Shown here: in pieces, positions 36,278-58,086 of the stretch
Layout of the letters: the number at the start of each line of letters is the position of its first letter
Position numbering within the stretch: the first letter of the stretch is position 1
Assembly: GCA_013288215.1 (NCBI GenBank)
Contig: JABDCI010000005.1
Coordinates: 2,962-66,961 of the forward strand
Direction: 5' to 3'
DNA length: 64,000 bases
Origin: Verrucomicrobiota bacterium
GTDB lineage: Bacteria; Verrucomicrobiota; Verrucomicrobiia; JABWAM01
Made by a program: the position numbers and the translations under genes
Notes under the pieces: generated by a model
Databases searched by the model: none
Seen by the model: the letters and a program-made list of their open reading frames with translations, nothing else
What the model was told of the DNA's origin: nothing

Positions 36278-37311
36278 TTCATTTTCTCCATGGTCACGTC
36301 GCCTGCAATGACTTTCTCGATCTGACCCGAGTCTGTTCTGACAAGCAGGGCACCATCGGTGTCCAGGCTGAGAGCCAGCCCGCGCAGCGGCGGCTTGCCG
36401 GCTGAGTGAACGCAGACCTGTGTCCCCACGGTTTCATCGAGCTCGCTCCATGCGTCGAGCAGCTTTGGAAAATCTGCGTCGTTCACGCTTGGACTCCATC
36501 TCTCCAGCTCGGACAATAGATCGGCGCAAAGGGAAGGACGATGAAAACTCCGCCCGGCTTCCAGCTTCAAGGAGGTGGCGACCTCGCGAAGTTCCACGGG
36601 GAAATCATTTTCTTCGAGATGGACGTTGATACCAATCCCGATGGCGACGGACTGAATCCGGCCGCTGTTCGCCGAGAGGTCAATTAGGATGCCGGCAAGT
36701 TTTTTGCCTTGGCAGAGGATGTCGTTCGGCCACTTGATTCGAAGCGGAAGACGCGTCATGCGCCGTAGCGATTGAGCCACGGCCACGGCGGTCATCACCG
36801 TGACGCGCGGCATGGAATGCATGGGCAGGGTGGGCCGCAGCAGAATGGTAAACCAGAGCCCCTTGCCAGCCGGAGAAATCCAGGAACGCGCGTGACGGCC
36901 CCGTCCTGCGGTTTGCGACTCCGCGAAGACCACAAGCCCTTCCGGATGGCCTTGAGAGCTGAGCTTTTGAACCACATCATTCGTGGATTCTGTTTTTTGA
37001 AAGACCACGATACGGTTCCCGATCAGAAAGGATTCGGATGGGTGAACTGCTCTCAACCGGGCGTGAAGATCATCGGGAATGAGCGAATCGGGGCTTTCCA
37101 TGAGACGATGGCCGCGTTGGGGGTGTTTTTCGATCACAAAGCCGAGTTCGCGCAGATCATCGAACGATTTGGCCAACTCTTTCTGCGGAATGTGATGCGT
37201 GTGGAGAAAACGCTCCTCCAACACGCCGGATCCCGAGCGATGGAGTTCAAACAGGATTTTTTCTTCGTTTGTCACCATCGATTTCGCGGGGAAGTTAAAG
37301 GTGGCGCTCAA
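36274..37311 (-). CDS. birA: Biotin-[acetyl-CoA-carboxylase] ligase with an N-terminal HTH (BirA)
   Basis: It shows QTAGRGRHARSWISPAGKGLWFT, KWPNDI and GIGINV. The start is uncertain: 37311 overlaps cbiX, and an alternative ATG lies at 37278. Confidence 0.85.
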   Translation of the reverse strand: MSATFNFPAKSMVTNEEKILFELHRSGSGVLEERFLHTHHIPQKELAKSFDDLRELGFVIEKHPQRGHRLMESPDSLIPDDLHARLRAVHPSESFLIGNRIVVFQKTESTNDVVQKLSSQGHPEGLVVFAESQTAGRGRHARSWISPAGKGLWFTILLRPTLPMHSMPRVTVMTAVAVAQSLRRMTRLPLRIKWPNDILCQGKKLAGILIDLSANSGRIQSVAIGIGINVHLEENDFPVELREVATSLKLEAGRSFHRPSLCADLLSELERWSPSVNDADFPKLLDAWSELDETVGTQVCVHSAGKPPLRGLALSLDTDGALLVRTDSGQIEKVIAGDVTMEKMK

Positions 37312-38104
37312 GGTCGCGGCACCGGTCGAGGATCACGTCCGCCATGGAAGGTTCCGATCCGATCGCATGAGCATACCAGAGCCACTGGGGGCCACACGGA
37401 AATTTCGATCCGATCGCAACGGGATTTTGCCAGGTTTCGCCCTGCTTTGCGAAGCCTATGTTCACGGGCACATCGTGGCGCGAATGCAAGCCGTCACTGA
37501 TGAAAAACGGCACTACGACGACAAAGGGGGTTCGCACCCGGGAAAGCACATCACGATCGAAAGGCGCCTGTTCCATGAACGCCGGCAGGACCGCGGCGAA
37601 AGAGGCTTCTTTCTCAAGGAGCGAGATTTGTTGAAGGAGAGCTTCCCCAGATTGTTCATTTTTGGTCGTTCCATGCCCCACGAGAACCAGGGTGACTTCC
37701 CGATGGGCGGGGATGCGTCCGTGGATGGGGCTGAGGATGTTTTCCGCCGCATGACGAAGTGAGCGGGTCATGGAGGGATGGGTGCCAACGGGAGCGCCAT
37801 ACACAATCCTGCGCGAGTCGCGGACCGTCACCGTGCCGGTAAGCTGCAGTTCACGTGGAATGACTTGCTGGGTGAAGTAACCGTCGCTCATGAAAAATGG
37901 AATGACGAAAACATCGTCGCTGACGACGAGTTGGAGCGCTTGCCGCCAATGCGGGTCCTCTCTCCAGAAGGAGGCGACGACTTCTTGGAAGATCTGACGC
38001 CGGCGAATGAACTCCGCATGGATGTAAGCGGGGCGGCTCGAATCGGGATTGCTCTTGGCGCCATGCGCGAGCAGAAGCAGCGCGCGGGAACGCGACGAAG
38101 TCAT
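37295..38104 (-). CDS. cbiX: CbiX-type (sirohydrochlorin) cobalto/ferrochelatase, two-domain form
   Basis: It contains two CbiX-like repeats, LLLAHGAKS... and LVLVGHGTTKNEQSGE...VVPFFISDGLH. Confidence 0.7.
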   Translation of the reverse strand: MTSSRSRALLLLAHGAKSNPDSSRPAYIHAEFIRRRQIFQEVVASFWREDPHWRQALQLVVSDDVFVIPFFMSDGYFTQQVIPRELQLTGTVTVRDSRRIVYGAPVGTHPSMTRSLRHAAENILSPIHGRIPAHREVTLVLVGHGTTKNEQSGEALLQQISLLEKEASFAAVLPAFMEQAPFDRDVLSRVRTPFVVVVPFFISDGLHSRHDVPVNIGFAKQGETWQNPVAIGSKFPCGPQWLWYAHAIGSEPSMADVILDRCRDLERHL

Positions 38105-45661: not shown

Positions 45662-47920
45662 TCAGTAAGGCAGTGGAAATCGGCGCGTGAGCTGTTTGAC
45701 ACTTTCGCGCACCTCGGCGAGCTTCGGTTCATCCTCGATGCTCACGAGCACGGTGGAAATGAGCGTTGCGATTTCGCGCATCTCGGCTTCTTTCATCCCG
45801 CGCGTCGTCACAGCAGGGGTGCCGATTCGGATGCCGCTCGTCACGAGCGGTTTTTCAGGGTCATACGGAATCAGATTTTTGTTCACGGTGATGCCTCCCT
45901 TGTCGAGGGCGATCTGAGCTTCTTTTCCTGTCACCTTTTGGTTGCGAAGATCGACGAGCATCAAATGATTGTCCGTGCCGCCGCTGACAATGCGGCAGCC
46001 ATTTTTATGGAGGCAATCGGCAAGCGTCTGAGCGTTTTTAACGATTTGCTCCTGGTAATCCTTAAATGAAGGCTGGAGGGCTTCTTGAAAGCAGACGGCT
46101 TTGGCGGCGATCACGTGCATCAAGGGGCCACCTTGGATGCCAGGCAGCACCATCGAATCGATCTCTTTGGCGAAACGTTCGCGGCAGAGGATAAGGCCGC
46201 CGCGAGGTCCGCGAAGGGTCTTATGCGTGGTCGTGGTGACGAAATCGGCATGCGGAACGGGGCTTGGATGAACACCGGTCGCGACCAAGCCGGCAATGTG
46301 GGCCATGTCGACGAAGAGCAAAGCATTCACCGAATTGGCGATTTGGCGCATTTTCTGAAAATCGATGATGCGAGGATAGGCGCTCGCGCCCACGGTGATG
46401 AGCTTTGGTTTATGTTCCTGCGCCAATTTCGCGGCGGTATCATAATCAATCCGCTCGTCTTCCTTCCGTACACCGTAGTGCACGACCTGATAAAATTGAC
46501 CTGAGAAGTTTCTGCTGAACCCATGCGTGAGATGGCCGCCGTGGGCGAGTTCCATCGTGAGGATCTTGTCGCCGGGCTTCAGGACGCTAAAGTAAACTGC
46601 CATATTGGCCTGGCTTCCGGAATGCGGCTGCACGTTGGCGTGTTCTGCTCCAAAGAGCTTTTTGGCGCGCTCGATGGCGAGCGATTCGGCAATGTCGACG
46701 AACTCGCATCCACCGTAATAGCGCTTTCCTGGATAACCTTCTGCATATTTGTTCGTCAGCACACTCCCCTGGGCCTCCAGGATGGCGGGGCTGGCGAAGT
46801 TTTCACTTGCGATGAGTTCGATGTTTTCCTGCTGACGCGTCTTTTCCTGTTGAATCGCGCGATAGATGGCCGGATCCGCATCGCGCAATACGGAGGAATC
46901 TCCCAGAGGCCTGTCCATTTTTTGGATTCGCTGCTCGTGGCGGCCACCCTCGAAGTGCGCCGTGAGCCAGCTATCAAGGATGCGCACCGCCTTGTCCGGA
47001 CCCGTCTCCATGGCTGCAAGACAGAGCACGTTGGCGTCGTTATGTTGGCGGCTCAGGCGAGCGGTGTTTTCGTCGTGCACCAGGGCGGCACGCGCGCCGG
47101 GGATGCGGTTGGCGGCCATGCTCATGCCGATGCCTGTCTTACAGATGAGCACGCCCAGATCGGCGCGCTGCTGAGCGACATCGCGGGCGACTGCCTGCCC
47201 GAAATCCGGATAATCTACGGATTCGGGCGTGAAAGTGCCGAGATCGGCGACCGGATATTGATTCTCTTCGAGATAAGATTTGAGAGCGTGTTTGAGCTCG
47301 ACTCCTCCATGATCGGCAGCAATGACAATGCTGGGTTTGTCCGTGCGTGAGCGTGAAGGTTTCGTGGAAGTTTGATTTTGCATAAATTTCAGGAGCGATG
47401 GAAGCGCGGATTGAATGGCATCCCGGCACGTTTGATACGTGAAATAGGATTGACCGATCGGATCGGGCACTTCGCGCTCAAACTCGGAAAGACCCTCTTC
47501 GAATTCCTTCACCAGGAAGAGTTTGTTGGCAGCCTCGGGATAAAGGGAAACGAGCGACCGAAAATGCGAGTGAGTCATCACAAAGATCGCATGGGCTTCC
47601 TGGATGAGCTTGTCGGTGACGGGCTGGGAGCGATGGTTTGAAATATCAAGGCCGATTTCACGCAACGCCCGCACCGCATTGTCGCTGGGGTGCTGTCCAG
47701 GATAGGCGCTTAAGCCGGCGGAAACGATTCGGATGCCGCCGCGATCTTGAACGAGTTGGCGCATTAAGCCTTCGGCCATCGGGCTGCGGCAGATGTTGCC
47801 TGTGCAAACAAAAAGAATGGTCTTCACGTATTCGGCGGCTGATCGGTTCCTCGCGCGTCCCAAAGAACGAAGCGGTTCCAGCAACCCGATAACTATTCCC
47901 TCCCATCCACTTGTCCGCAA
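45662..47920 (-). CDS. Tri-functional fusion: LMW protein (Tyr/Arg) phosphatase, ribose-5-phosphate isomerase B and serine hydroxymethyltransferase
   Basis: It is a single uninterrupted 752-codon ORF. Residues ~33-180 carry CTGNICRS (CX5R P-loop) and DP. Residues ~197-335 read [11 protein letters not shown]...[14 protein letters not shown]...FEGGRH (RpiB/LacAB). Residues ~345-752 read IELIASENF...[14 protein letters not shown]...[13 protein letters not shown] (GlyA). Confidence 0.85.
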
Positions 47921-49620: not shown

Positions 49621-50409
49621 ATGAAACGTTATCTGCGACTGGCGATCGCATTGTTTCGCTACAGTCTCACGCGCGAGATGATGTTCAAGGCGAATTTCCT
49701 CCTCTGGATCATTGTGGAGATCGCCTGGTTCGGCATCCAACTCGCATTCGTCGAGGTGATTTTTGCGAACGTCCATTCCGTGGCCGGTTGGACGAAATAT
49801 GAAATGATTCTTTTGGTTGGAACGAGTCATTTGGTGCAGCAGGCCTTTCAGTTCGTGTTCATGGTGAATTGCATGGAGCTTCCGGAAAACGTGCGCACCG
49901 GAAAACTGGATTTCGCGCTCTTACAGCCTGCGAGCAGCCAGTTTCTCATTTCCGTGCGCAAGTTCGACATTGGCGCTTTGGTGAATGCCACCATCGGCCT
50001 TGGTTTCGCGGTCTACGCGATTGGCAAATTGAATGTGCCGGTCGGGCCGGAACAGGCATTTCTTTATTCCGCTCTCGTCGTCAACGGGGTCGTGATCCAT
50101 TACGCATTGATGCTTATGATCGTCACGCTCTCCTTCTGGATTATCCGCGCACAGGGACTCGTCTATGGTTATTACAACCTTTTCCAGCTGACGCGCATTC
50201 CACGTGAAGCATTCCGCGGCGGCGTGCGGTTTTTTTTCTCCTTTGTGGTCCCGATGTTGGTGGTCGCGAACTATCCTGCCGAAGTGCTTGGACGCGATCT
50301 GCAGGGTTGGGGCATGCTCTGGGTGTTCGGACTTTCCTTTGCGCTTTTGGGAGTGGCGAGCCTCTGGTTCCAATTCGCACTGCGCTTTTACACCAGCGCC
50401 AGCTCCTAG
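49621..50409 (+). CDS. ABC-2-type transporter permease (ABC2_membrane_6-like), second subunit
   Basis: It reads MKRYLRLAIALFRYSLTREMMFKANFLLWIIVE. It is polytopic. It starts 1 nt after the previous stop. Confidence 0.7.
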   Translation: MKRYLRLAIALFRYSLTREMMFKANFLLWIIVEIAWFGIQLAFVEVIFANVHSVAGWTKYEMILLVGTSHLVQQAFQFVFMVNCMELPENVRTGKLDFALLQPASSQFLISVRKFDIGALVNATIGLGFAVYAIGKLNVPVGPEQAFLYSALVVNGVVIHYALMLMIVTLSFWIIRAQGLVYGYYNLFQLTRIPREAFRGGVRFFFSFVVPMLVVANYPAEVLGRDLQGWGMLWVFGLSFALLGVASLWFQFALRFYTSASS

Positions 50410-50419
50410 GTCGAAAGTT

Positions 50420-52282
50420 TTAGAGGGAGTTTCCGTGCTGCCGGCGCAGCAAGAGGATGAGGAAACCGAGTCCCCCCACAAGGCTGGTCAAGATTCCAAC
50501 AGGAACTTCAGCGCCATGTCCTCCGATGGAGAGGCAGCGCGCTGAGGCGTCGGCAACGGCAAGAATCGCACCTCCGGCAAACATGGAGCATGGGATCACT
50601 AAACGCTGATCTGTGCCCACGAGATGCCGTACGATGTGAGGTATAAGAAGACCCACAAATCCGATCGGTCCCGCTACGGAAACGACGGCGGCAGTTGCGA
50701 GTGATCCGCCGAGGAGCACGCGTTTCTGAACGCGTGAGACATGCACGCCGCGACCCTGCGCCACTTCCTCCCCGAACGCGATCTGATGGAGATCCCGGCA
50801 ATGCCTTAGGATGAGGATGAGTCCCAGGACCAGAAAAGGAAGGCATGCGATGACGTCCGTCCAGGACGAACCTTCCAGTCCGCCGACCATCCACTGGTCC
50901 ATGGCCCGGAGGGTCAGCGGATTTGCGATAAAACGTACAAGCATGATCGCGGCCCCGGAAATGAGACCCAGTGCGATGCCCGCGAGTAGCAGCCCCATCT
51001 TGTTTCTGCCGGCGAGCGAACTCATCCGGATTCGCCAAAGAAAAGCGACATTGGCGAGTGCAAATGTCAGCGCCCAGATTTGTACGCCGGAAAAAGGACC
51101 CCAGACGGGAGAAAGTGCGGGGAAACTCAGAGCAATGACGGCTCCGAGCGAAGACGTGCTCGCAATGCCGAGCGTGTAGGGTTCCGCCAGTGGATTGCGC
51201 AATAAGCATTGGAAGGCGGCTCCGGCGCTTCCAAGCGCCATTCCAGCCATTAATCCCAGAAAAACGCGCGGCAGTCGAAGTGCAAGAATCTGTGCAGAAA
51301 TCGTGCGATGTCCCGGCGTTGACGTGAGCATTTGGTGGATCGCCGCGGGAATGTGAATGGTTTCCATGCCGAATGCAGGAGAGAGGATGAGCCCGATCAA
51401 AGCCAGGAGGCCAAAAACCCCGACTGTCCCGATGAAACGGGAAAAAGTTAATGTTAAAAGAGCGGGCGAATGGACAAGCGGCGGGATAGGGTTCTCTTCT
51501 TCAAGCAGGGACGTTTCGATGTTTGGAATCACCTGCGGTGCGCCGGCTCCGGTCAATAAGCGGATCTCCTTCCCATAAACCTTCTCGAGATATTCGGTGC
51601 GGAAAACTTCGTGAACCGAGCCTGTCACAATGCGCTTGCCGTGATCGAGAAGCGTGACCCGGTTGGCGAAGTGCGATGCGAGCGTGAGATCATGTGTGGA
51701 AAAAAGGATCGCGGTTCCACGCTCTGCTTCATCGCGAAGAAGTCGAAGAAGACTGATCTGGTGGTGGATATCGAGGGCGCTGGTAGGTTCATCCAGGAGC
51801 ACCGCACGCGGTTGCTGTGCGAGGACGGAGGCGAGCAGCACGCGTTGGCGTTCTCCTCCTGAAAGTGTTGCAAAGTCGCGGTCGCGAAACGCCAGCGATT
51901 GCATGCGTTTCAAGCTTTGTTCGGCCACGTTCAAGTCCTCGAGGCCGGGCAGGCCGAGTCCTTTCATATGGGCATAACGCCCCATCAGCACCACTTCCAT
52001 CGCGGTCATCGAAAATTGCGGAGTCACTTGCTGCGGCAGAAAGGCGAGCGTTCGCGCGAGTTCGGTTTTCGTGAAGCACGAAAGCGGTCGATCATTCCAT
52101 TGGATCATCCCGTGGACAGGAATGAGATTCACCGCCAAAAGCTGCAGCACCGTGCTTTTGCCGCATCCGTTGGGGCCGATCAATGCGTGCACCTCGCCTT
52201 CTCGAACGTCGAGCGCATCGATTTCCAGACAAAACGTGTTCTTGTAAGAAAAGCGCACATCGCGCGCCACCAGCGTGTTCAT
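50420..52282 (-). CDS. Fused ABC ATPase (BtuD/FecE-like) and FecCD-family permease (BtuC-like)
   Basis: The N-terminal ~255 aa carry Walker A GPNGCGKST, the signature LSGGERQR and Walker B LLDEPTSALD. The C-terminal ~350 aa are polytopic with the FecCD-type motif GPIGFVGLLIPHIVRHLVG. Confidence 0.85.
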   Translation of the reverse strand: MNTLVARDVRFSYKNTFCLEIDALDVREGEVHALIGPNGCGKSTVLQLLAVNLIPVHGMIQWNDRPLSCFTKTELARTLAFLPQQVTPQFSMTAMEVVLMGRYAHMKGLGLPGLEDLNVAEQSLKRMQSLAFRDRDFATLSGGERQRVLLASVLAQQPRAVLLDEPTSALDIHHQISLLRLLRDEAERGTAILFSTHDLTLASHFANRVTLLDHGKRIVTGSVHEVFRTEYLEKVYGKEIRLLTGAGAPQVIPNIETSLLEEENPIPPLVHSPALLTLTFSRFIGTVGVFGLLALIGLILSPAFGMETIHIPAAIHQMLTSTPGHRTISAQILALRLPRVFLGLMAGMALGSAGAAFQCLLRNPLAEPYTLGIASTSSLGAVIALSFPALSPVWGPFSGVQIWALTFALANVAFLWRIRMSSLAGRNKMGLLLAGIALGLISGAAIMLVRFIANPLTLRAMDQWMVGGLEGSSWTDVIACLPFLVLGLILILRHCRDLHQIAFGEEVAQGRGVHVSRVQKRVLLGGSLATAAVVSVAGPIGFVGLLIPHIVRHLVGTDQRLVIPCSMFAGGAILAVADASARCLSIGGHGAEVPVGILTSLVGGLGFLILLLRRQHGNSL

Positions 52283-53148
52283 GGTGTTTTCCGATCCTCT
52301 TCGCTGAATTTACGAAAACAGGCCTCGAACCATTCGGCAATCTGGACCATCCGTGGTCCCGGGATCGTGGCAAAGTCCTCGGTCACGTAGACAATCCGAT
52401 GATGATGCGATGCCGGCGTGTCGGCCGTTGAAAGCCAGTCGGGAACGTCCTTTTTTCCCTGAACACTCCCGCGGAATTCGAAAATCGCATCGGGTTGAAG
52501 AGCGAGAATCGATTCGCGGCTTGGGATGAAGTAAGGAAGCCGCTGTTCGCTAAAAATATTGACGCCGTGCGCGGCCTCCATCATTTCGCTGATGAAGGAG
52601 TTTTTGCCTGCCGCCATCAAGCTGCGGCTGCTTTCCGCTTCTCCGTCGAGCAGGGCGAGCGCCTTGTAGGCTGGAAGCGACGCGCTCCTTTTGCGAACCG
52701 CATCCAGGCGCACTTGAAGCTCGGCAACGAGTGCGCGGGCGGTGTTGCCCTTTCCAAGGAGATCCCCCACGCGGATCGTCTCTTCGGTGAGCTCATGAAA
52801 ACTTTCGATCGTGACGGAGAGGCATTGGATCTCGTTGTTTTCGGCGAAGCGACGCACACGATCCATGCGTCCAAGGACGAAAAGGAGGGTGGGATGGAGC
52901 GCAAGAATCCGCTCGAAATTGGGATTGAGCAATCCTCCGCAGCGGGGTTCCGAAACCCCCTCCGGAAGCTGGCAATAGTCCGAAACGCCGACGAGCGAAT
53001 TCGTGGCGCCAAGCGCGAGTATGATTTCGGTGACGTTGGGAGTCATGCTCACGACGCGCGGGTCGTGGGGTGCCGCGCTCACTCGGGACATCAGGATGAA
53101 GGCAAAAAAAAGCGCGCCTGTCCTGCGCCAAAAATGCCCGATCTTCAT
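52279..53148 (-). CDS. btuF: Periplasmic corrinoid/siderophore-binding protein (BtuF/FecB family)
   Basis: It has a signal peptide, MKIGHFWRRTGALFFAFILMSRVSA. RVVSMTPNVTEIILALGATNSLVGVSDYC is typical of BtuF-like proteins. There is a 4-nt overlap with the downstream ATPase-permease gene. Confidence 0.75.
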   Translation of the reverse strand: MKIGHFWRRTGALFFAFILMSRVSAAPHDPRVVSMTPNVTEIILALGATNSLVGVSDYCQLPEGVSEPRCGGLLNPNFERILALHPTLLFVLGRMDRVRRFAENNEIQCLSVTIESFHELTEETIRVGDLLGKGNTARALVAELQVRLDAVRKRSASLPAYKALALLDGEAESSRSLMAAGKNSFISEMMEAAHGVNIFSEQRLPYFIPSRESILALQPDAIFEFRGSVQGKKDVPDWLSTADTPASHHHRIVYVTEDFATIPGPRMVQIAEWFEACFRKFSEEDRKTP

Positions 53149-53220
53149 AGGTTTGCGGCAACCTGCGAGCAAATCTGCATGGATGGAAGGAATTCTTTCA
53201 CACCGGACAACAAGCTTCTG

Positions 53221-53958
53221 TCATTTCAACACCGTAAGATCGCAAAACCAAAAACCGCGAGTTGTGGGACGCGGTGCTTGGGCGGGAAGTGGACAGACGG
53301 TGGAGTCAGGATGCGTTTGCTCCAGCGGACGATAAACTCGAGGGCCGATCTGAATCTGAAGTGGTTTGCGGAAGATGGGGCCGGCGTAGGCGAATGAATG
53401 ATATTCGCCATTTTCGCCGCACGGGTCGACATTGGACGGAAGATTGGAAACAAATGCTGAATCGATGTTCTTTCCAAGGCTTTCCTGGTCAAGATAGGCA
53501 TCGTTCACACAGCAGATGACGGATTGGAATTGCAGATCGATGAATTCCTGAATCAGCTTGCGCGTGTCTATTTTCCAAAGGGGAAAGAGGCCTTGCAATC
53601 CAATCTGCGCAAGGTTGGATTCGCGCCAGCGTTTCAAATCCTCGAGAAAGATGTCTCCAAAAACCACCTGTTTGACTCCCTGTTCCTGATATTTTTTCAG
53701 GATACGCGTCATTTTCTCAGCGTATTCTTCGTTTGAGCTGCGCCGGCTGACCTGCATTTTCTCGAGAGGCAGGCCGATGGCCGCGGCCTGTTTTTCAAGG
53801 AGCGCCTCGCGAATGCCGTGCATCGAAACACGCCGGTAATATTCGTTGAAAGTCGTCAGAAGCCCCACCACCTCGTATTGGCCGGAGCACAACACTTTGT
53901 GAAGGCAAAGCGCCGAATCTTTGCCTCCACTCCAGCACATAAGAACTTTTTCTTTCAT
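53221..53958 (-). CDS. Dph6/MJ0570-type PP-loop ATP pyrophosphatase (diphthine-ammonia ligase-like), paralog 1
   Basis: The PP-loop is CWSGGKDSAL. It also shows FGDIFLEDLKRWRE, FPLW and CGENGEYHSF. It lies between btuB and btuF on the same strand. Confidence 0.75.
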   Translation of the reverse strand: MKEKVLMCWSGGKDSALCLHKVLCSGQYEVVGLLTTFNEYYRRVSMHGIREALLEKQAAAIGLPLEKMQVSRRSSNEEYAEKMTRILKKYQEQGVKQVVFGDIFLEDLKRWRESNLAQIGLQGLFPLWKIDTRKLIQEFIDLQFQSVICCVNDAYLDQESLGKNIDSAFVSNLPSNVDPCGENGEYHSFAYAGPIFRKPLQIQIGPRVYRPLEQTHPDSTVCPLPAQAPRPTTRGFWFCDLTVLK

Positions 53959-54072
53959 AAGGCTTGTTCGGTTGGAGCGACGTTTTATATCCCATGGTGA
54001 CGCTTCATGCGAACATATCCCTCCATTGGGTCTTCACCCCGAGTTGAATGTTCATCCTTCGCGTCTTTGGTA

Positions 54073-55935
54073 TCAATAATCGAATTCCAATCCGGCGTAA
54101 AAAGTGCGGCCCAAGGCCGGATAACCAGCCGCTTGCTGATAGCGGTAGCCCAGCAGATTTTCGCCTTTGGCGAACGTTTTTAAATGCCGATTGATCTGGT
54201 AGTTCACATCAAGGTCAAGGCGGTTAAATTCACTCAATGTTTGCGTATTGCCCTGATCGTCAAAACTTTGGCCCGTGAAGCTGTAAATCAGGACAAGCCC
54301 CAATTCATCCAGAGCCTGCCATGTGGTGGCAACACTGGCGGTTTGCCGAGGGATGCGCGCCAGATTATTGCCCGTGAAACGGGGATCCTTGTCGGTCGTT
54401 GAAGTGAGGGTGTAAGCTATCCGAAACGAAAGATTGGTGGTGGCGTTCCAATCCGCCGAGTTTTCGACACCTTCGGTGCGAACTTTGGCCAGGTTTTGAA
54501 ACACAAATGCATTGTCCGCTGCAATCAGGTTGACAACGTCGTTATAGAAATAAGTGGAATCCACCTTCAGCTTGTTATCCAAGAGCGGTTGAGTGACCCC
54601 GACGTCGTAGCCTTCGGTTGTTTCAGGGATCAGATTGGGATTCGCTCCCGAGTTGGGGCCGAAAAGAGGCTGAAGTTCGGAGATGGCGGGCGCACGAAAC
54701 GCCGTGCCGAAGGACATGTGGATGCGGGAATCCGTGACAGGGGTCTTGAAAAACTGGCTTGCCCGGTATGTGAAGGCGTCTCGAAACCCTTCATTATCGT
54801 CGAAGCGGCCGGAAAGGGTGAAACCCCATTGATCCTCCAAACGGATATTATCCGAGAGATAAACGGCATCCGTGGCACGATTGAACACATTGTTGCCGTT
54901 GGAGGCTTCGGTCGTGGTATGGTCGTTGTAAGCTTGGATTCCGGCGACGAAAGTATTCCACTCCGCCACGTTCATGGTATTTTGCCAATCGAGCTGGAGG
55001 CTTTGGCTGTGATCGACATATTCCGCGGGAGGGGAATCAGATCGCTGGCCAATGCCGATGTAACCCAGTGTGAGTTTGCTTTGCCAGATCTCGAACGGTG
55101 TCACTGTCAAGGAGGGAGAAATCATGGTCATGCGGCGAATCAGTCTGGAGGCAGGATCGTTTGCACCGAAGCCCGTGATGCCATTGGGAGTTCCGACCGT
55201 ATAGTCGGTCCACCTGGTGACCAGATCCAGACGAGCTGTGTCGGAGATGTCATATCCGAAGCGTCCTGCAGCGGCATTTTGGCGAAAGTTATTGTTGGGT
55301 CGTTCCTGATCCGTATCAAGACGCGCATATTCGGCATTCCAATCGAATTGTTTTTCCTTGCCCTGGGTAAAGATGCGCTCCCGTCGTGTGTCGAAAGTTC
55401 CCGCCTCAAAAGAAGTGCCAAACGTGGGTTTCCCCTGTCCTTGAGGAGCGAAGAGGGAAACCACGCCCCCCTGGGCCATGGAGCCATAGAGGGAACTCTG
55501 GGGTCCCCGCAAGATTTCCAGGTTGCCGGTAAGCAAAGGGGGGAGATCGGCAAGATCGGCAATGCCATCGATGGACCGGTTGAAATTCAAGCCATCGACT
55601 TGAACAAGGGTGCGGCTAAAAGGCAGGCCACGGATGGAGATCTGTGACACGCCCCCCTGCGCACCCGTGCCGTTGTTCACTTCCGTGCCGGCTTGCCCGC
55701 GCAGGATTTCTTCGGTCGTGAAGGGATGCTGTGCCTGGATGAATTTTTCGCTCACGACCGAGATGCTCGAACCTGATTTCCACGCCTCCTCCTCGAATTT
55801 CGAGGCCGACACCACAATTTCGTCCATTTGGGCGTCTGTTTTTGAGGCGCTCTCGACGTTGTTGGTGTTTTGTGCGTAGAGCGGAAGGGTGAGGGCCGCG
55901 AAACTTAGGCCGGCATAATAAACGAAACGATTCAT
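54073..55935 (-). CDS. btuB: TonB-dependent outer-membrane receptor (BtuB-like)
   Basis: From the ATG at 55935 it has a signal peptide, FAALTLPLYA. The TonB box is DEIVVSAS. It has a plug and barrel, and the C-terminus reads YAGLEFDY. It lies directly downstream of a cobalamin riboswitch. Confidence 0.85.
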   Translation of the reverse strand: MNRFVYYAGLSFAALTLPLYAQNTNNVESASKTDAQMDEIVVSASKFEEEAWKSGSSISVVSEKFIQAQHPFTTEEILRGQAGTEVNNGTGAQGGVSQISIRGLPFSRTLVQVDGLNFNRSIDGIADLADLPPLLTGNLEILRGPQSSLYGSMAQGGVVSLFAPQGQGKPTFGTSFEAGTFDTRRERIFTQGKEKQFDWNAEYARLDTDQERPNNNFRQNAAAGRFGYDISDTARLDLVTRWTDYTVGTPNGITGFGANDPASRLIRRMTMISPSLTVTPFEIWQSKLTLGYIGIGQRSDSPPAEYVDHSQSLQLDWQNTMNVAEWNTFVAGIQAYNDHTTTEASNGNNVFNRATDAVYLSDNIRLEDQWGFTLSGRFDDNEGFRDAFTYRASQFFKTPVTDSRIHMSFGTAFRAPAISELQPLFGPNSGANPNLIPETTEGYDVGVTQPLLDNKLKVDSTYFYNDVVNLIAADNAFVFQNLAKVRTEGVENSADWNATTNLSFRIAYTLTSTTDKDPRFTGNNLARIPRQTASVATTWQALDELGLVLIYSFTGQSFDDQGNTQTLSEFNRLDLDVNYQINRHLKTFAKGENLLGYRYQQAAGYPALGRTFYAGLEFDY

Positions 55936-56063
55936 AGGGCTGATGCTCCGATTGAATGAGAGACCAGCTGGCGACTTTGCAAAGACGACAGTTGACACTC
56001 CCAATCTTGTTTTTAGCGAACAAGGTTTTTCGACGACTTCCCAAGAAGCTGCCGTATTGAGAA

Positions 56064-56210
56064 CATCGCAGCCGTTATCCTGACTTCAGGCTTCAAACCT
56101 TGCCCCCGCCTTCACTCTCGAACACGTTCGGAGTTGGCATTTGAGAGCTCGTAGCCTGTTACAGTGGCGCAACCGTTCCCGATTTTCACGGGATTCCCTG
56201 CGCTGCGATG
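56064..56210 (-). promoter_or_regulatory. Cobalamin (B12) riboswitch aptamer
   Basis: The minus strand reads CATCGCAGCgcAGGGAAtcccGTGAAAAtcGGGaaCgGttGCGCCACTGT...gtgAAGGCg...GAAGTCAGGAtAACgGCTGCGATG. It has the conserved AGGGAA/GTGAAA/GCCACTG core and a B12-box-like AGTCAGGA. The closing P1 helix is CATCGCAGC (56210-56202) paired with GCTGCGATG (56072-56064). Confidence 0.8.
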
Positions 56211-56375
56211 CATTCCGGATTTCCGGAAAAAACCTGCAAAGAACAACCGGCCCGACTCTGCCACGACTCTTCAGCCAAGACAATGGGATTTTATTGCTCG
56301 GCATTGAACTCGCGTTACCATGGATGCCATGCGAATCGAATGTCGAACCCTGATGAAAGCAGGCTCGAGGTAGGG

Positions 56376-57050
56376 ATGCCGAAACGTGTGGCGGTCTTAT
56401 GGACGGGCGGCAAGGATTCCTGTTTCGTCCTTCATCAGATGGCGGCGGCGGGAAACGAGATTCAACTTCTGGCCACCTTCGTTCCTAAAAACACCTCGTT
56501 TCTGGCGCATCCTCTTGCGATCATGAAGGCTCAGGCTGAAGCTCTTGGTGTTTCCCACCTGGAAATTCCCGTTGAAGAGCCATACCGTGAAGGTTACGAG
56601 CGGGGGCTGAGAGCACTCCAGGAAGAGCATCGGATCGATGCGGTGACGACGGGCGATATCTCCGAAGTGGATGGATTGCCGAATTGGATCCGCGAATGCA
56701 GTGGTTCCATGGGGCTGGAAGTGATCACGCCGCTCTGGGGGATCGATCGGTTCGATCACATGCGCCGCCTGATTGAAGAAGGATATGACGTGCTTTTTTC
56801 GTGCGTGAAGCATTGCTGGCTCGCGCCTGAATGGACGGGCAGAAGCCTCAATATGAAATGGCTCGATGAATTGGGTTCCGTGCGGAAGAAAAACGGGCTC
56901 GACCTTTGCGGAGAGCAGGGGGAATTTCACACGCTCGTCACTTTGGCTCCTCGTTTTAAACAACGCATTGTGCTGCAGCGGACATCCATCGAATCGCGGG
57001 CAGAATTCAGCTTCCTGCGAGTTGGAGGGGTTCATTTATGCATCCCTTAA
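56376..57050 (+). CDS. Dph6/MJ0570-type PP-loop ATP pyrophosphatase, paralog 2
   Basis: From the ATG at 56376, which has a GAGGTAGGG Shine-Dalgarno sequence, it reads MPKRVAVLWTGGKDSCFVL. It also shows TPLWG and CGEQGEFHTLV. It is divergent from the riboswitch/btuB promoter region. Confidence 0.75.
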   Translation: MPKRVAVLWTGGKDSCFVLHQMAAAGNEIQLLATFVPKNTSFLAHPLAIMKAQAEALGVSHLEIPVEEPYREGYERGLRALQEEHRIDAVTTGDISEVDGLPNWIRECSGSMGLEVITPLWGIDRFDHMRRLIEEGYDVLFSCVKHCWLAPEWTGRSLNMKWLDELGSVRKKNGLDLCGEQGEFHTLVTLAPRFKQRIVLQRTSIESRAEFSFLRVGGVHLCIP

Positions 57051-57093
57051 ACTTTTGATTGTGCAGCGGGTGGTCTATGGCAGAATGGGAGGA

Positions 57094-58086
57094 ATGCACT
57101 GCTTTCAGTCCAACCGTTTTATAAACCGAAGGTTGCTGGTCCTTCTTTGCGTCTTATTTCTGTCCTACGGGAGTTTTGCTCGCGGCGACCTGGTCGACGG
57201 CATTGCCGCCATCGTGAATCAGGACATCATCACGTTTACGGATGTGAAGAACATGGTGGGACAGACGGAGGATTCGTTGCGGAAAGCTTATTCGCCGGGC
57301 GATCCCCAGCTTGGCGAAAAAATCCAGCAGGCCTACAAGGAAGCCCTCGATCAGCTGATTGAACGTCAACTTATCATCCAACAGTTTAACAGCAAAGGGG
57401 GCAAGGTTCCCGAAACCCTCATTGAAGAAGAAATTCAGCAAACGATTGATGATCAATATGGGCACGATCGGAGTGTCTTTATCAAGACGCTTGAAGCGCT
57501 TGGCTTGGATCTTGAGACCTACAAGGAACGTATCCGAGACAAGATTGTCGTTCGTTACATGCAGCAGACCGAGGTCAGCAACGAAATCATTATTTCTCCC
57601 TATAAGATTGAAAAATATTACGAGGAGCATCCTTCGGAGTTCCAAGAGGGCGAAAAAGTGAAACTGCGCATGATTTACGTCAAAAAAGGAAGTACGGATG
57701 AAGAAACCGCGGGTGCCAAAAGTCTGGTCCAGGAAATTTTATTGAAGCTGACGACCGGGTCGGATTTCGCCTCATTGGCATCCGTTTATTCTGAAGGATC
57801 CGAAAAGAACCAGGGAGGCGATCTTGGCTTCGTCGGACGCGACAGCCTCAGGAAAGAACTTGCGGATGCGGCGTTTGCACTCGATGCCGGCCAGCTTAGC
57901 AAAGTGATTGAAACGAAGGAGGGTTTCTACTTGGTGCAGGTGGAGGATAAAAAACCTGCCAAGGTGAGTACTTTGGAGGAATCGCGCGATCTTATCGAGC
58001 GCCTGCTTATTGCTCAGGAACGCGCACGGCTTCAAAAGCGATGGGTCCAGTCTCTCAGGCGCAAGGCGTATATTCGAATGTATTAG
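57094..58086 (+). CDS. SurA-like periplasmic chaperone / PpiC-type peptidyl-prolyl isomerase
   Basis: It has a signal peptide. The SurA_N-like segment is DGIAAIVNQDIITFTDV. The rotamase domain reads KVKLRMIYV...GGDLGFVGRDSLRKELADAAFAL...GFYLVQVED. An alternative start lies at 57085. Confidence 0.8.
   Translation: MHCFQSNRFINRRLLVLLCVLFLSYGSFARGDLVDGIAAIVNQDIITFTDVKNMVGQTEDSLRKAYSPGDPQLGEKIQQAYKEALDQLIERQLIIQQFNSKGGKVPETLIEEEIQQTIDDQYGHDRSVFIKTLEALGLDLETYKERIRDKIVVRYMQQTEVSNEIIISPYKIEKYYEEHPSEFQEGEKVKLRMIYVKKGSTDEETAGAKSLVQEILLKLTTGSDFASLASVYSEGSEKNQGGDLGFVGRDSLRKELADAAFALDAGQLSKVIETKEGFYLVQVEDKKPAKVSTLEESRDLIERLLIAQERARLQKRWVQSLRRKAYIRMY

Follow-up and report, generated by a model that had tools for sequence, protein, structure and literature searches.

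The DNA considered here is a 64-kb stretch of a Verrucomicrobiota genome (64,000 nucleotides of contig JABDCI010000005.1), which is called the window below. It carries a cobalamin-riboswitch-repressible corrinoid import operon that encodes an outer-membrane receptor, a PP-loop ATPase of the DUF71 family (here termed C1), a periplasmic binding protein and a fused ATP-binding cassette (ABC) ATPase-permease. A second PP-loop ATPase of the same family (C2) is encoded on the opposite strand, beyond the riboswitch. By its sequence, C1 is a further member of the DUF71-B12 kind, which has been predicted computationally before, while C2 belongs to a separate subfamily that is only in part linked to B12. 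The best explanation of the locus as a whole, to which we would give a probability of roughly 45%, is that C1 and C2 adenylate and amidate a carboxylate of the corrinoid that is brought in by the products of this operon. The features of the locus are as follows.

56054..56252, minus strand: cobalamin riboswitch aptamer at the head of the operon (Rfam RF00174; own covariance model R1, 112.6 bits)
55936..56053, minus strand: putative leader or expression platform, from the aptamer to the btuB-like start codon (sequence reading)
54073..55935 (alternative TTG start at 56004), minus strand: TonB-dependent outer-membrane receptor, BtuB-like (Pfam Plug and TonB_dep_Rec_b-barrel)
53221..53958, minus strand: C1, PP-loop ATPase of the DUF71-B12 subgroup, 245 amino acids (PF01902, E=6.4e-39; SGGKDS, CGENGEYHSF)
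52279..53172, minus strand: BtuF-like periplasmic corrinoid-binding protein (PF01497 Peripla_BP_2, E=1.4e-23)
50420..52282, minus strand: fused BtuD (ABC ATPase, N-terminal) and BtuC (FecCD permease, C-terminal), one open reading frame of 620 amino acids (Pfam)
56253..56375, no strand assigned: putative divergent promoter region of about 123 bp, common to the riboswitch operon and C2 (placed by geometry only)
56376..57050, plus strand: C2, second PP-loop ATPase of a distinct subfamily and partner paralogue of C1, 224 amino acids (PF01902, E=1.5e-35; TGGKDS, CGEQGEFHTLV)

The Rfam scan covered the whole window, and the cobalamin riboswitch was its sole match: RF00174 aligned over the full model (1-189) at 56054-56252 on the minus strand, with 52.2 bits (E=4e-10) against a gathering score of 31.5. 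A riboswitch had been read from the letters at 56064-56210 on the same strand, and its presence is borne out by the covariance model, although the span was drawn slightly too narrow. The aptamer lies upstream of the btuB-like gene and on the same strand, with 50-118 nucleotides between its end and the start codon. It is followed by the btuB-like receptor, C1, btuF-like and fused btuD-btuC genes, which are separated by gaps of 114 and 48 nucleotides and then overlap by 4 nucleotides, a spacing so tight that the four genes are taken to form one operon. The original prediction had listed this same series of genes, and Pfam domains recover each element at or near the place proposed for it; the reading frames and motifs given for the two PP-loop enzymes were likewise correct. 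One correction concerns C2, which starts 124 nucleotides past the 5′ end of the aptamer on the opposite strand, and which by position is neither downstream of the riboswitch nor under its control. Scans with promoter and terminator consensus sequences over 50200-57300 found sites no more frequently than in shuffled sequence and are uninformative on transcript boundaries; the promoter scan gave no promoter in 56253..56375. The arrangement is not regarded as a product of chance, because it recurs both in relatives (loci L162 and L164 of the samples described below) and in many unrelated lineages.

The B12 specificity of the receptor is suggested by the riboswitch and the operon, and not by membership of an equivalog family. 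Specifically, the model that it matches best in NCBIfam is TIGR01779 (TonB-dependent B12 receptor), with 210.6 bits against a cutoff of 599.7, and NF007926 gives 163.2 against 836, which places the protein outside the BtuB equivalogs. The BtuF-like protein also scores under the cutoffs of the NCBIfam models for BtuF, IsdE and related proteins. In the transporter fusion, the ABC_tran domain spans residues 23-168 and the FecCD domain residues 294-613. A fusion of ATPase and permease of about 620 amino acids is also kept in the relative L162 (1596-3470).

The family to which both PP-loop proteins belong (DUF71/COG2102/PF01902) was split by de Crecy-Lagard et al. (2012, Biol Direct 7:32; PMC3541065) into Dph6 proper and the DUF71-B12 subgroup, the latter comprising bacterial members plus second archaeal copies. 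DUF71-B12 was defined by its clustering with btuCDF and cbiB (75/102 next to B12 transporter genes, 18/102 next to cbiB) and has the signature ENGE[F/Y]H, as opposed to EGGE/DxE in Dph6 (PMC3541065). In the Verrucomicrobia genomes then at hand, DUF71 was present in 0/4 (PMC3541065). The statement in the original prediction that bacterial members of the family are functionally unassigned therefore holds for experiment, but a B12 role had already been predicted for them in 2012 (PMC3541065). The same can be said of its core idea that a Dph6-like enzyme works on B12 or corrinoids, which is well supported by the signature and by the enrichment reported below, but was published in that paper (PMC3541065).

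C1 agrees with the published subgroup in its PF01902 domain (134.2 bits, cutoff 23.2), its PP-loop and its position between the btuB-like and btuF-like genes of a riboswitch-headed operon, that is, in its clustering with btu transporter genes. Its ENGEYH conforms exactly to the signature ENGE[FY]H, and His stands where Dph6 has Glu188. Among the 120 C1 homologues listed (60-73% identical), SGGKDS is present in 120/120 and GENGE[FY]H in 116/120, and more than 8000 database clusters match C1. A look-up of the exact C1 protein sequence (P0001) returned no record, and C2 (P0121) and relatives were used instead. The AlphaFold 2 model of C1 has a predicted local distance difference test score (pLDDT) of 90.6, and its best fold matches in the PDB are PH1257 and PF0828 (Foldseek probability 1.0, target-normalised TM-score 0.75-0.81), both of the Dph6 type, which are its only close solved relatives.

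Dph6 (EC 6.3.1.14; PF0828 = 3RJZ/3RK0/3RK1, PH1257 = 2D13, and yeast Dph6) is thus alike to C1 in fold and in ATP-binding residues, and PF0828 has been crystallised with ATP and AMP. The two differ in that identity in the structural alignment is only about 21% and that EGGE/DxE is replaced in C1; furthermore, the hosts of C1 and C2 are bacteria, which have no diphthamide pathway, and the residues of Dph6 that bind elongation factor 2 (EF2) are not conserved in DUF71-B12 (PMC3541065). An assignment of C1 and C2 to Dph6 proper was considered and rejected: TIGR03679 gives 92.6 for C1 and 122.1 for C2 against a cutoff of 197.3, and the EGGE/DxE motif is absent, with His in place of Glu. The source annotations of bacterial homologues read “diphthine--ammonia ligase” (PGAP) or “TIGR00290 family”, and given the motif, the scores under cutoff, the missing pathway and the EF2 residues, the PGAP name is probably a misannotation.

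The strength of the link to B12 was quantified in 80 metagenome loci with C1-type proteins, all of which were scanned with Rfam. Neighbouring genes were identified by iterated hidden Markov model searches and clustering, with Pfam on cluster representatives, as single-query BLASTP for btu genes was too insensitive. In 14 C1-type loci, the DUF71 gene is preceded on its own strand by a cobalamin riboswitch, at a distance of 1.0-4.9 kb, and the rate is given as 14/37 because upstream sequence extends for 2.5 kb or more in only 37 of the 80 loci. The own covariance model (R1), built from a 13-sequence subset alignment (A4), recovered every Rfam riboswitch match in this sample, including six outside its training set; one more riboswitch, partial at a contig end (L082), was found by R1 only. 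Genes for a BtuF-like protein, TonB receptor, FecCD, DUF6580, CobU or CobS occur on the same strand within 5 kb in 31/80 C1-type loci, and the C1 gene stands between cobU and cobS in five loci (L015, L078, L123, L145 and L147). Counted from the side of the riboswitches, 36 were found in 1.75 Mb of analysed loci (at least one in 30 loci), and 29 of them precede a DUF71 gene on its own strand; the remaining seven belong to one conserved Poribacteria block. C2-type loci without B12 context (about 0.9 Mb, a rough estimate) contained none. The enrichment of the PP-loop family in B12 regulons, on which the original prediction had been made to depend, was therefore found by a wide margin, both among loci and among riboswitches, and we regard a link of C1 and C2 to B12 uptake and salvage as very probable indeed.

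Several observations were made in passing on the neighbours of these genes. A small protein of the DUF6580 family (PF20221) recurs in operons with a cobalamin riboswitch, where its gene is flanked by those of the TonB-dependent receptor and the DUF71 protein (e.g. L015 9374-9994, L012 903-1472 and L165 5470-5997; 18/80 C1-type loci). Loci with DUF6580 often show no btuCD genes nearby, and the protein may be an uncharacterised inner-membrane corrinoid transporter. In five high-GC loci (L140, L144, L150, L151 and L159), one strand carries two cobalamin riboswitches: btuF-btuC-btuD follow a short copy of about 110 nucleotides, and the genes for the TonB receptor and C1 follow a full-length one. 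A match to the Acido-Lenti-1 RNA was also found in L150, at 420-465. In three C1-type loci without btu genes (L103, L106 and L108, e.g. L108 1110-4457), an IcmF-like fused B12-dependent mutase, with B12-binding, MeaB and methylmalonyl-CoA mutase domains, is encoded within 5 kb of the DUF71 gene.

C2 was originally taken to be a paralog of C1 transcribed the other way. It is indeed divergent and a PF01902 protein (123.2 bits, cutoff 23.2), but not a simple paralogue: the two proteins are 30% identical, and C2 and its homologues carry TGGKDS where DUF71-B12 has SGGKDS, and E[QE]GE[FY]H where it has ENGE[FY]H. In EQGEFH of C2 itself the signature His is kept and Asn is changed to Gln, so that it shares only the His of the DUF71-B12 motif; its homologues carry TGGKDS and GE[EQ]GE[YF]H. 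The AlphaFold 2 model of C2 has a pLDDT of 93.7, and it shares with that of C1 a confident fold of the PF0828 and PH1257 type. In a neighbour-joining tree, drawn with the reference sequences of the 2012 paper left out, the C1 clade is apart from the C2 clade, and the copies of the window fall inside subclades with B12 context. More specifically, the C2 of the window groups with C2 sequences that stand beside C1 in riboswitch-headed btu operons.

The C2 side was surveyed in 80 genome loci obtained with a C2-alignment query, 71 of which are true C2-type. A C1-type gene is found within 3 kb of C2 in 15/71 of these. The two genes are in tandem, often with a 4-nucleotide overlap, in L004, L006, L009, L013, L048, L165 and L168, as well as in about ten Poribacteria loci, they are in one operon in L015 and L166, and they are also paired in L084; a riboswitch is upstream of the pair in L013, L015, L165, L166 and L168. 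The order varies with the lineage: btuB-C1-C2 with 4-nucleotide overlaps in Verrucomicrobiota (L004, L006, L013), btuB-C2-C1 in Planctomycetia (L009) and C1-C2-btuF-btuD in Planctomycetaceae (L048). In Chitinophaga polysaccharea (L015; NZ_VIWO01000009.1, positions 124256-144909), one strand carries the riboswitch followed by TonB receptor, DUF6580, C2, BtuF, CobU, C1, CobS and a CobC-like phosphatase. Three of the four nearest database homologues of C2 on long contigs are in riboswitch-headed operons with C1, namely L165 (receptor, DUF6580, C2, C1), L166 (receptor, C1, DUF1289, BtuF, two unannotated genes, C2) and L168 (receptor, C2, C1, TonB, BtuF, BtuD, BtuC), and the C2-like gene of L167 has no B12 context. 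Of the close relatives, L162 has the divergent layout of the window with different, unrelated genes beyond C2 (in the window these are, in order, surA-like, pdxA, kdsB and uvrB), and in L164 btuB-C1 occupies one strand, while the other carries btuF-C2, two genes that overlap. Among the closest relatives of the window, three different layouts are seen, each with C2 beside btu genes.

In Verrucomicrobiota, Planctomycetota and Bacteroidota (Chitinophaga), the B12-context subclade of C2 is thus paired with C1 in operons headed by a riboswitch. The 2012 paper makes no mention of riboswitches or of tandem or paired copies (PMC3541065), and the recurrent pairing in riboswitch-controlled operons of several phyla, of which no earlier description was found, appears to be new; as it is the pairing that is undescribed, the locus is best seen as a variant of a known arrangement and not as a new category.

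In Poribacteria (about ten loci), the tandem stands outside riboswitch-headed operons, in the order hisI-trpE-trpG-C1-C2. C1-C2 after hisI-trpE-trpG was seen in L051, L053, L061, L063, L064, L066 and L072 and also in L002; the trpG product of this block is a class-I glutamine amidotransferase. On the opposite strand, 3-4 kb off, a cobalamin riboswitch (L051 5793-6025, minus strand) heads an otherwise unannotated dockerin-domain gene of about 490 amino acids (4341-5816-type). Small Cys-rich domains (Cys_rich_CWC PF14375, DUF1289 PF06945) are fused to, or directly follow, some C1- and C2-type genes (L165 7429-7656; L166 3001-4097; protein P0184), which hints at a metal, Fe-S or redox accessory.

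Weaker PDB matches of the C1 model are GMP synthetase, TilS, argininosuccinate synthase and MnmA, enzymes that activate a substrate oxygen by adenylation. The residues that contact the ATP phosphates according to PMC3541065 (SGGKD, the equivalent of His48, G-x-G-E-[FY] and T/S189) are kept in both C1 and C2. No signal peptide is evident on reading the N-termini, for which reason both proteins are taken to be cytoplasmic, where they would act on corrinoid delivered by the transporter. There, ATP would serve to adenylate a carboxylate on the freshly imported corrinoid, probably the same first half-reaction as in Dph6, and ammonia, or another amine, would displace AMP. In this way a carboxylate-bearing corrinoid, incompletely amidated or de-amidated, would become a usable precursor, and the two paralogues would probably serve different positions or substrates. 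A re-amidation of salvaged corrinoid carboxylates fits both PP-loop chemistry and the retained ATP-site residues. It departs from the cautious proposal of the 2012 authors, who envisaged a pseudo-B12 amidohydrolase akin to CbiZ or some other part in the salvage of pseudo-B12, and the adenylation-amination chemistry agrees with the objection of reviewer 3 of that paper, who questioned a hydrolase role for a PP-loop ligase (PMC3541065). Taken on its own, the adenylation-plus-amidation chemistry of C1 and C2 is a tentative assignment, the odds of which fall somewhat short of even.

A functional analogy lies behind this amidation hypothesis. CbiA/CobB and CbiP/CobQ catalyse the ATP-dependent amidation of corrinoid side-chain carboxylates, and they too are a pair of enzymes, with different regiospecificity. 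Their fold, however, is unrelated to that of C1 and C2, their reaction passes through an ADP-forming phosphoryl intermediate, and they contain a glutaminase domain; C1 and C2 are predicted AMP-forming PP-loop proteins, in which Pfam detected no glutaminase domain. By analogy, C1 and C2 might constitute a two-enzyme, ATP- and ammonia-dependent module for corrinoid repair or completion, in which each enzyme would re-amidate different side-chain carboxylates on scavenged corrinoids. We consider this extended form improbable, but if true, the module would be the counterpart, on the salvage side, of the CbiA/CbiP pair, and B12 auxotrophs could use corrinoid carboxylic acids that are otherwise useless or inhibitory.

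A number of points weigh against adenylation and amidation of imported corrinoids by C1 and C2. His takes the place of the catalytic Glu188 of Dph6, which may have altered the chemistry, and DUF71-B12 is strictly anticorrelated with bacterial CbiZ, which points to CbiZ-like remodelling and not to amidation (PMC3541065). A literature search for later biochemical or genetic tests of any DUF71-B12 member found none. Any statement on cob, cbi and cbiZ genes is limited to the 64-kb window, from a contig of about 67 kb, in which no cbiZ or cbiB is present. As regards C2, it lies outside the riboswitch transcript in this window, it neighbours the C1 gene in only 1/80 C1-type loci and so is not generally required, and there are large C2-like clades without B12 context. 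Within 10 kb of the C2-like genes of Aeromonas, Zobellella, Tenacibaculum, Glaciecola, Elusimicrobia and many Bathyarchaeia there is neither a riboswitch nor any btu or cob gene, and such copies stand next to unrelated genes, for LysR, Lrp, 2-oxoadipate dioxygenase and an FAD oxidase. Given these clades and the rarity of pairing as seen from C1, C2 is best described as an accessory partner in particular lineages and not as a universal subunit. An obligate C1-C2 heterodimer as a family-wide rule was rejected on the same 1/80 count.

Several other activities have to be weighed against corrinoid amidation. CbiZ, the adenosylcobinamide/pseudo-B12 amidohydrolase, has no sequence or fold kinship with C1 or C2 and is a hydrolase that does not depend on ATP, and its likeness is that of a functional alternative, proposed from the anticorrelated distribution (PMC3541065). 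In the form put forward by the 2012 authors, DUF71-B12 proteins would take imported cobamides such as pseudo-B12 and remove or replace their lower-ligand arm, either by cleaving the f-side-chain amide to give adenosylcobyric acid or by other remodelling, and thereby feed CbiB, CobU and CobS. Besides the anticorrelation, the co-occurrence and adjacency of DUF71-B12 with CbiB (PMC3541065), the five loci with C1 between cobU and cobS and the altered chemistry suggested by the Glu-to-His change all speak for such a role. Nevertheless, an ATP-consuming PP-loop ligase fold acting as a hydrolase is essentially without precedent, as reviewer 3 pointed out (PMC3541065), and the strict conservation of the PP-loop and phosphate contacts implies the use of ATP; cbiB was not recognised among the recurrent neighbours in the sampled loci, which is weak evidence as no cbiB profile was used. 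We therefore hold a CbiZ analogue to be unlikely, though by no means negligible.

An adenylating ligase could also employ a nucleophile other than ammonia, for example by transferring aminopropanol(-phosphate) onto the f-carboxylate of cobyric acid in a soluble CbiB-like step, or by thiolating or otherwise derivatising a corrinoid carboxylate. The PP-loop superfamily employs a variety of nucleophiles, as is shown by TilS, MnmA and argininosuccinate synthase, which are structural neighbours of C1; adjacency to cbiB (18/102; PMC3541065), the position of C1 among nucleotide-loop genes and the Cys-rich CWC and DUF1289 domains fused to or beside C1 or C2 in some loci can be read in the same direction. 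However, Dph6 as the closest characterised relative uses ammonia, and DUF71-B12 co-occurs with CbiB and does not replace it (PMC3541065), which makes a different nucleophile rather doubtful. Least of all do we expect that C1 and C2 have no catalytic role or bear on corrinoids only indirectly, be it as an ATP-dependent chaperone for them or in their release from the transporter, or that C2 is an unrelated housekeeping neighbour. C2 is separately transcribed in the window and in L162, and the copies without B12 context in Aeromonas, Zobellella, Tenacibaculum, Glaciecola and L167 would fit such a view, but the catalytic motifs are invariant in both subfamilies, and the C2 of the window is in the subclade that is found in riboswitch operons with C1. 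Moreover, the three independent layouts in close relatives keep C2 by btu genes while its other neighbours change, and in L164 C2 even overlaps the btuF-like gene.

DUF71-B12 is widespread and has a strong link to B12, and its bacterial members are routinely given the wrong name “diphthine--ammonia ligase”. The identification of its reaction would fill a gap in our understanding of how scavenged corrinoids are processed by the many environmental and gut bacteria that are auxotrophic for B12. To the published prediction, the present analysis adds a direct quantification of the B12 link at the level of riboswitches, as well as the partner subfamily C2. Since Chitinophaga polysaccharea is cultured and has the whole module in one operon, the question is experimentally tractable.

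Two further observations concern other parts of the window. Pfam scans of positions 1-48 kb for more B12 genes returned only a CbiX-like chelatase gene at 37295-38104 (minus strand), the only further tetrapyrrole- or B12-related gene seen in the window; it adjoins biotin ligase and pantothenate kinase genes, and a sirohaem ferrochelatase is an equally possible identity. Finally, a single open reading frame of 752 amino acids (45662-47920, minus strand) combines Pfam domains of a low-molecular-weight phosphotyrosine phosphatase, an RpiB-type ribose-5-phosphate isomerase and a serine hydroxymethyltransferase, and may be either a real triple fusion or a set of adjacent in-frame genes without an intervening stop.

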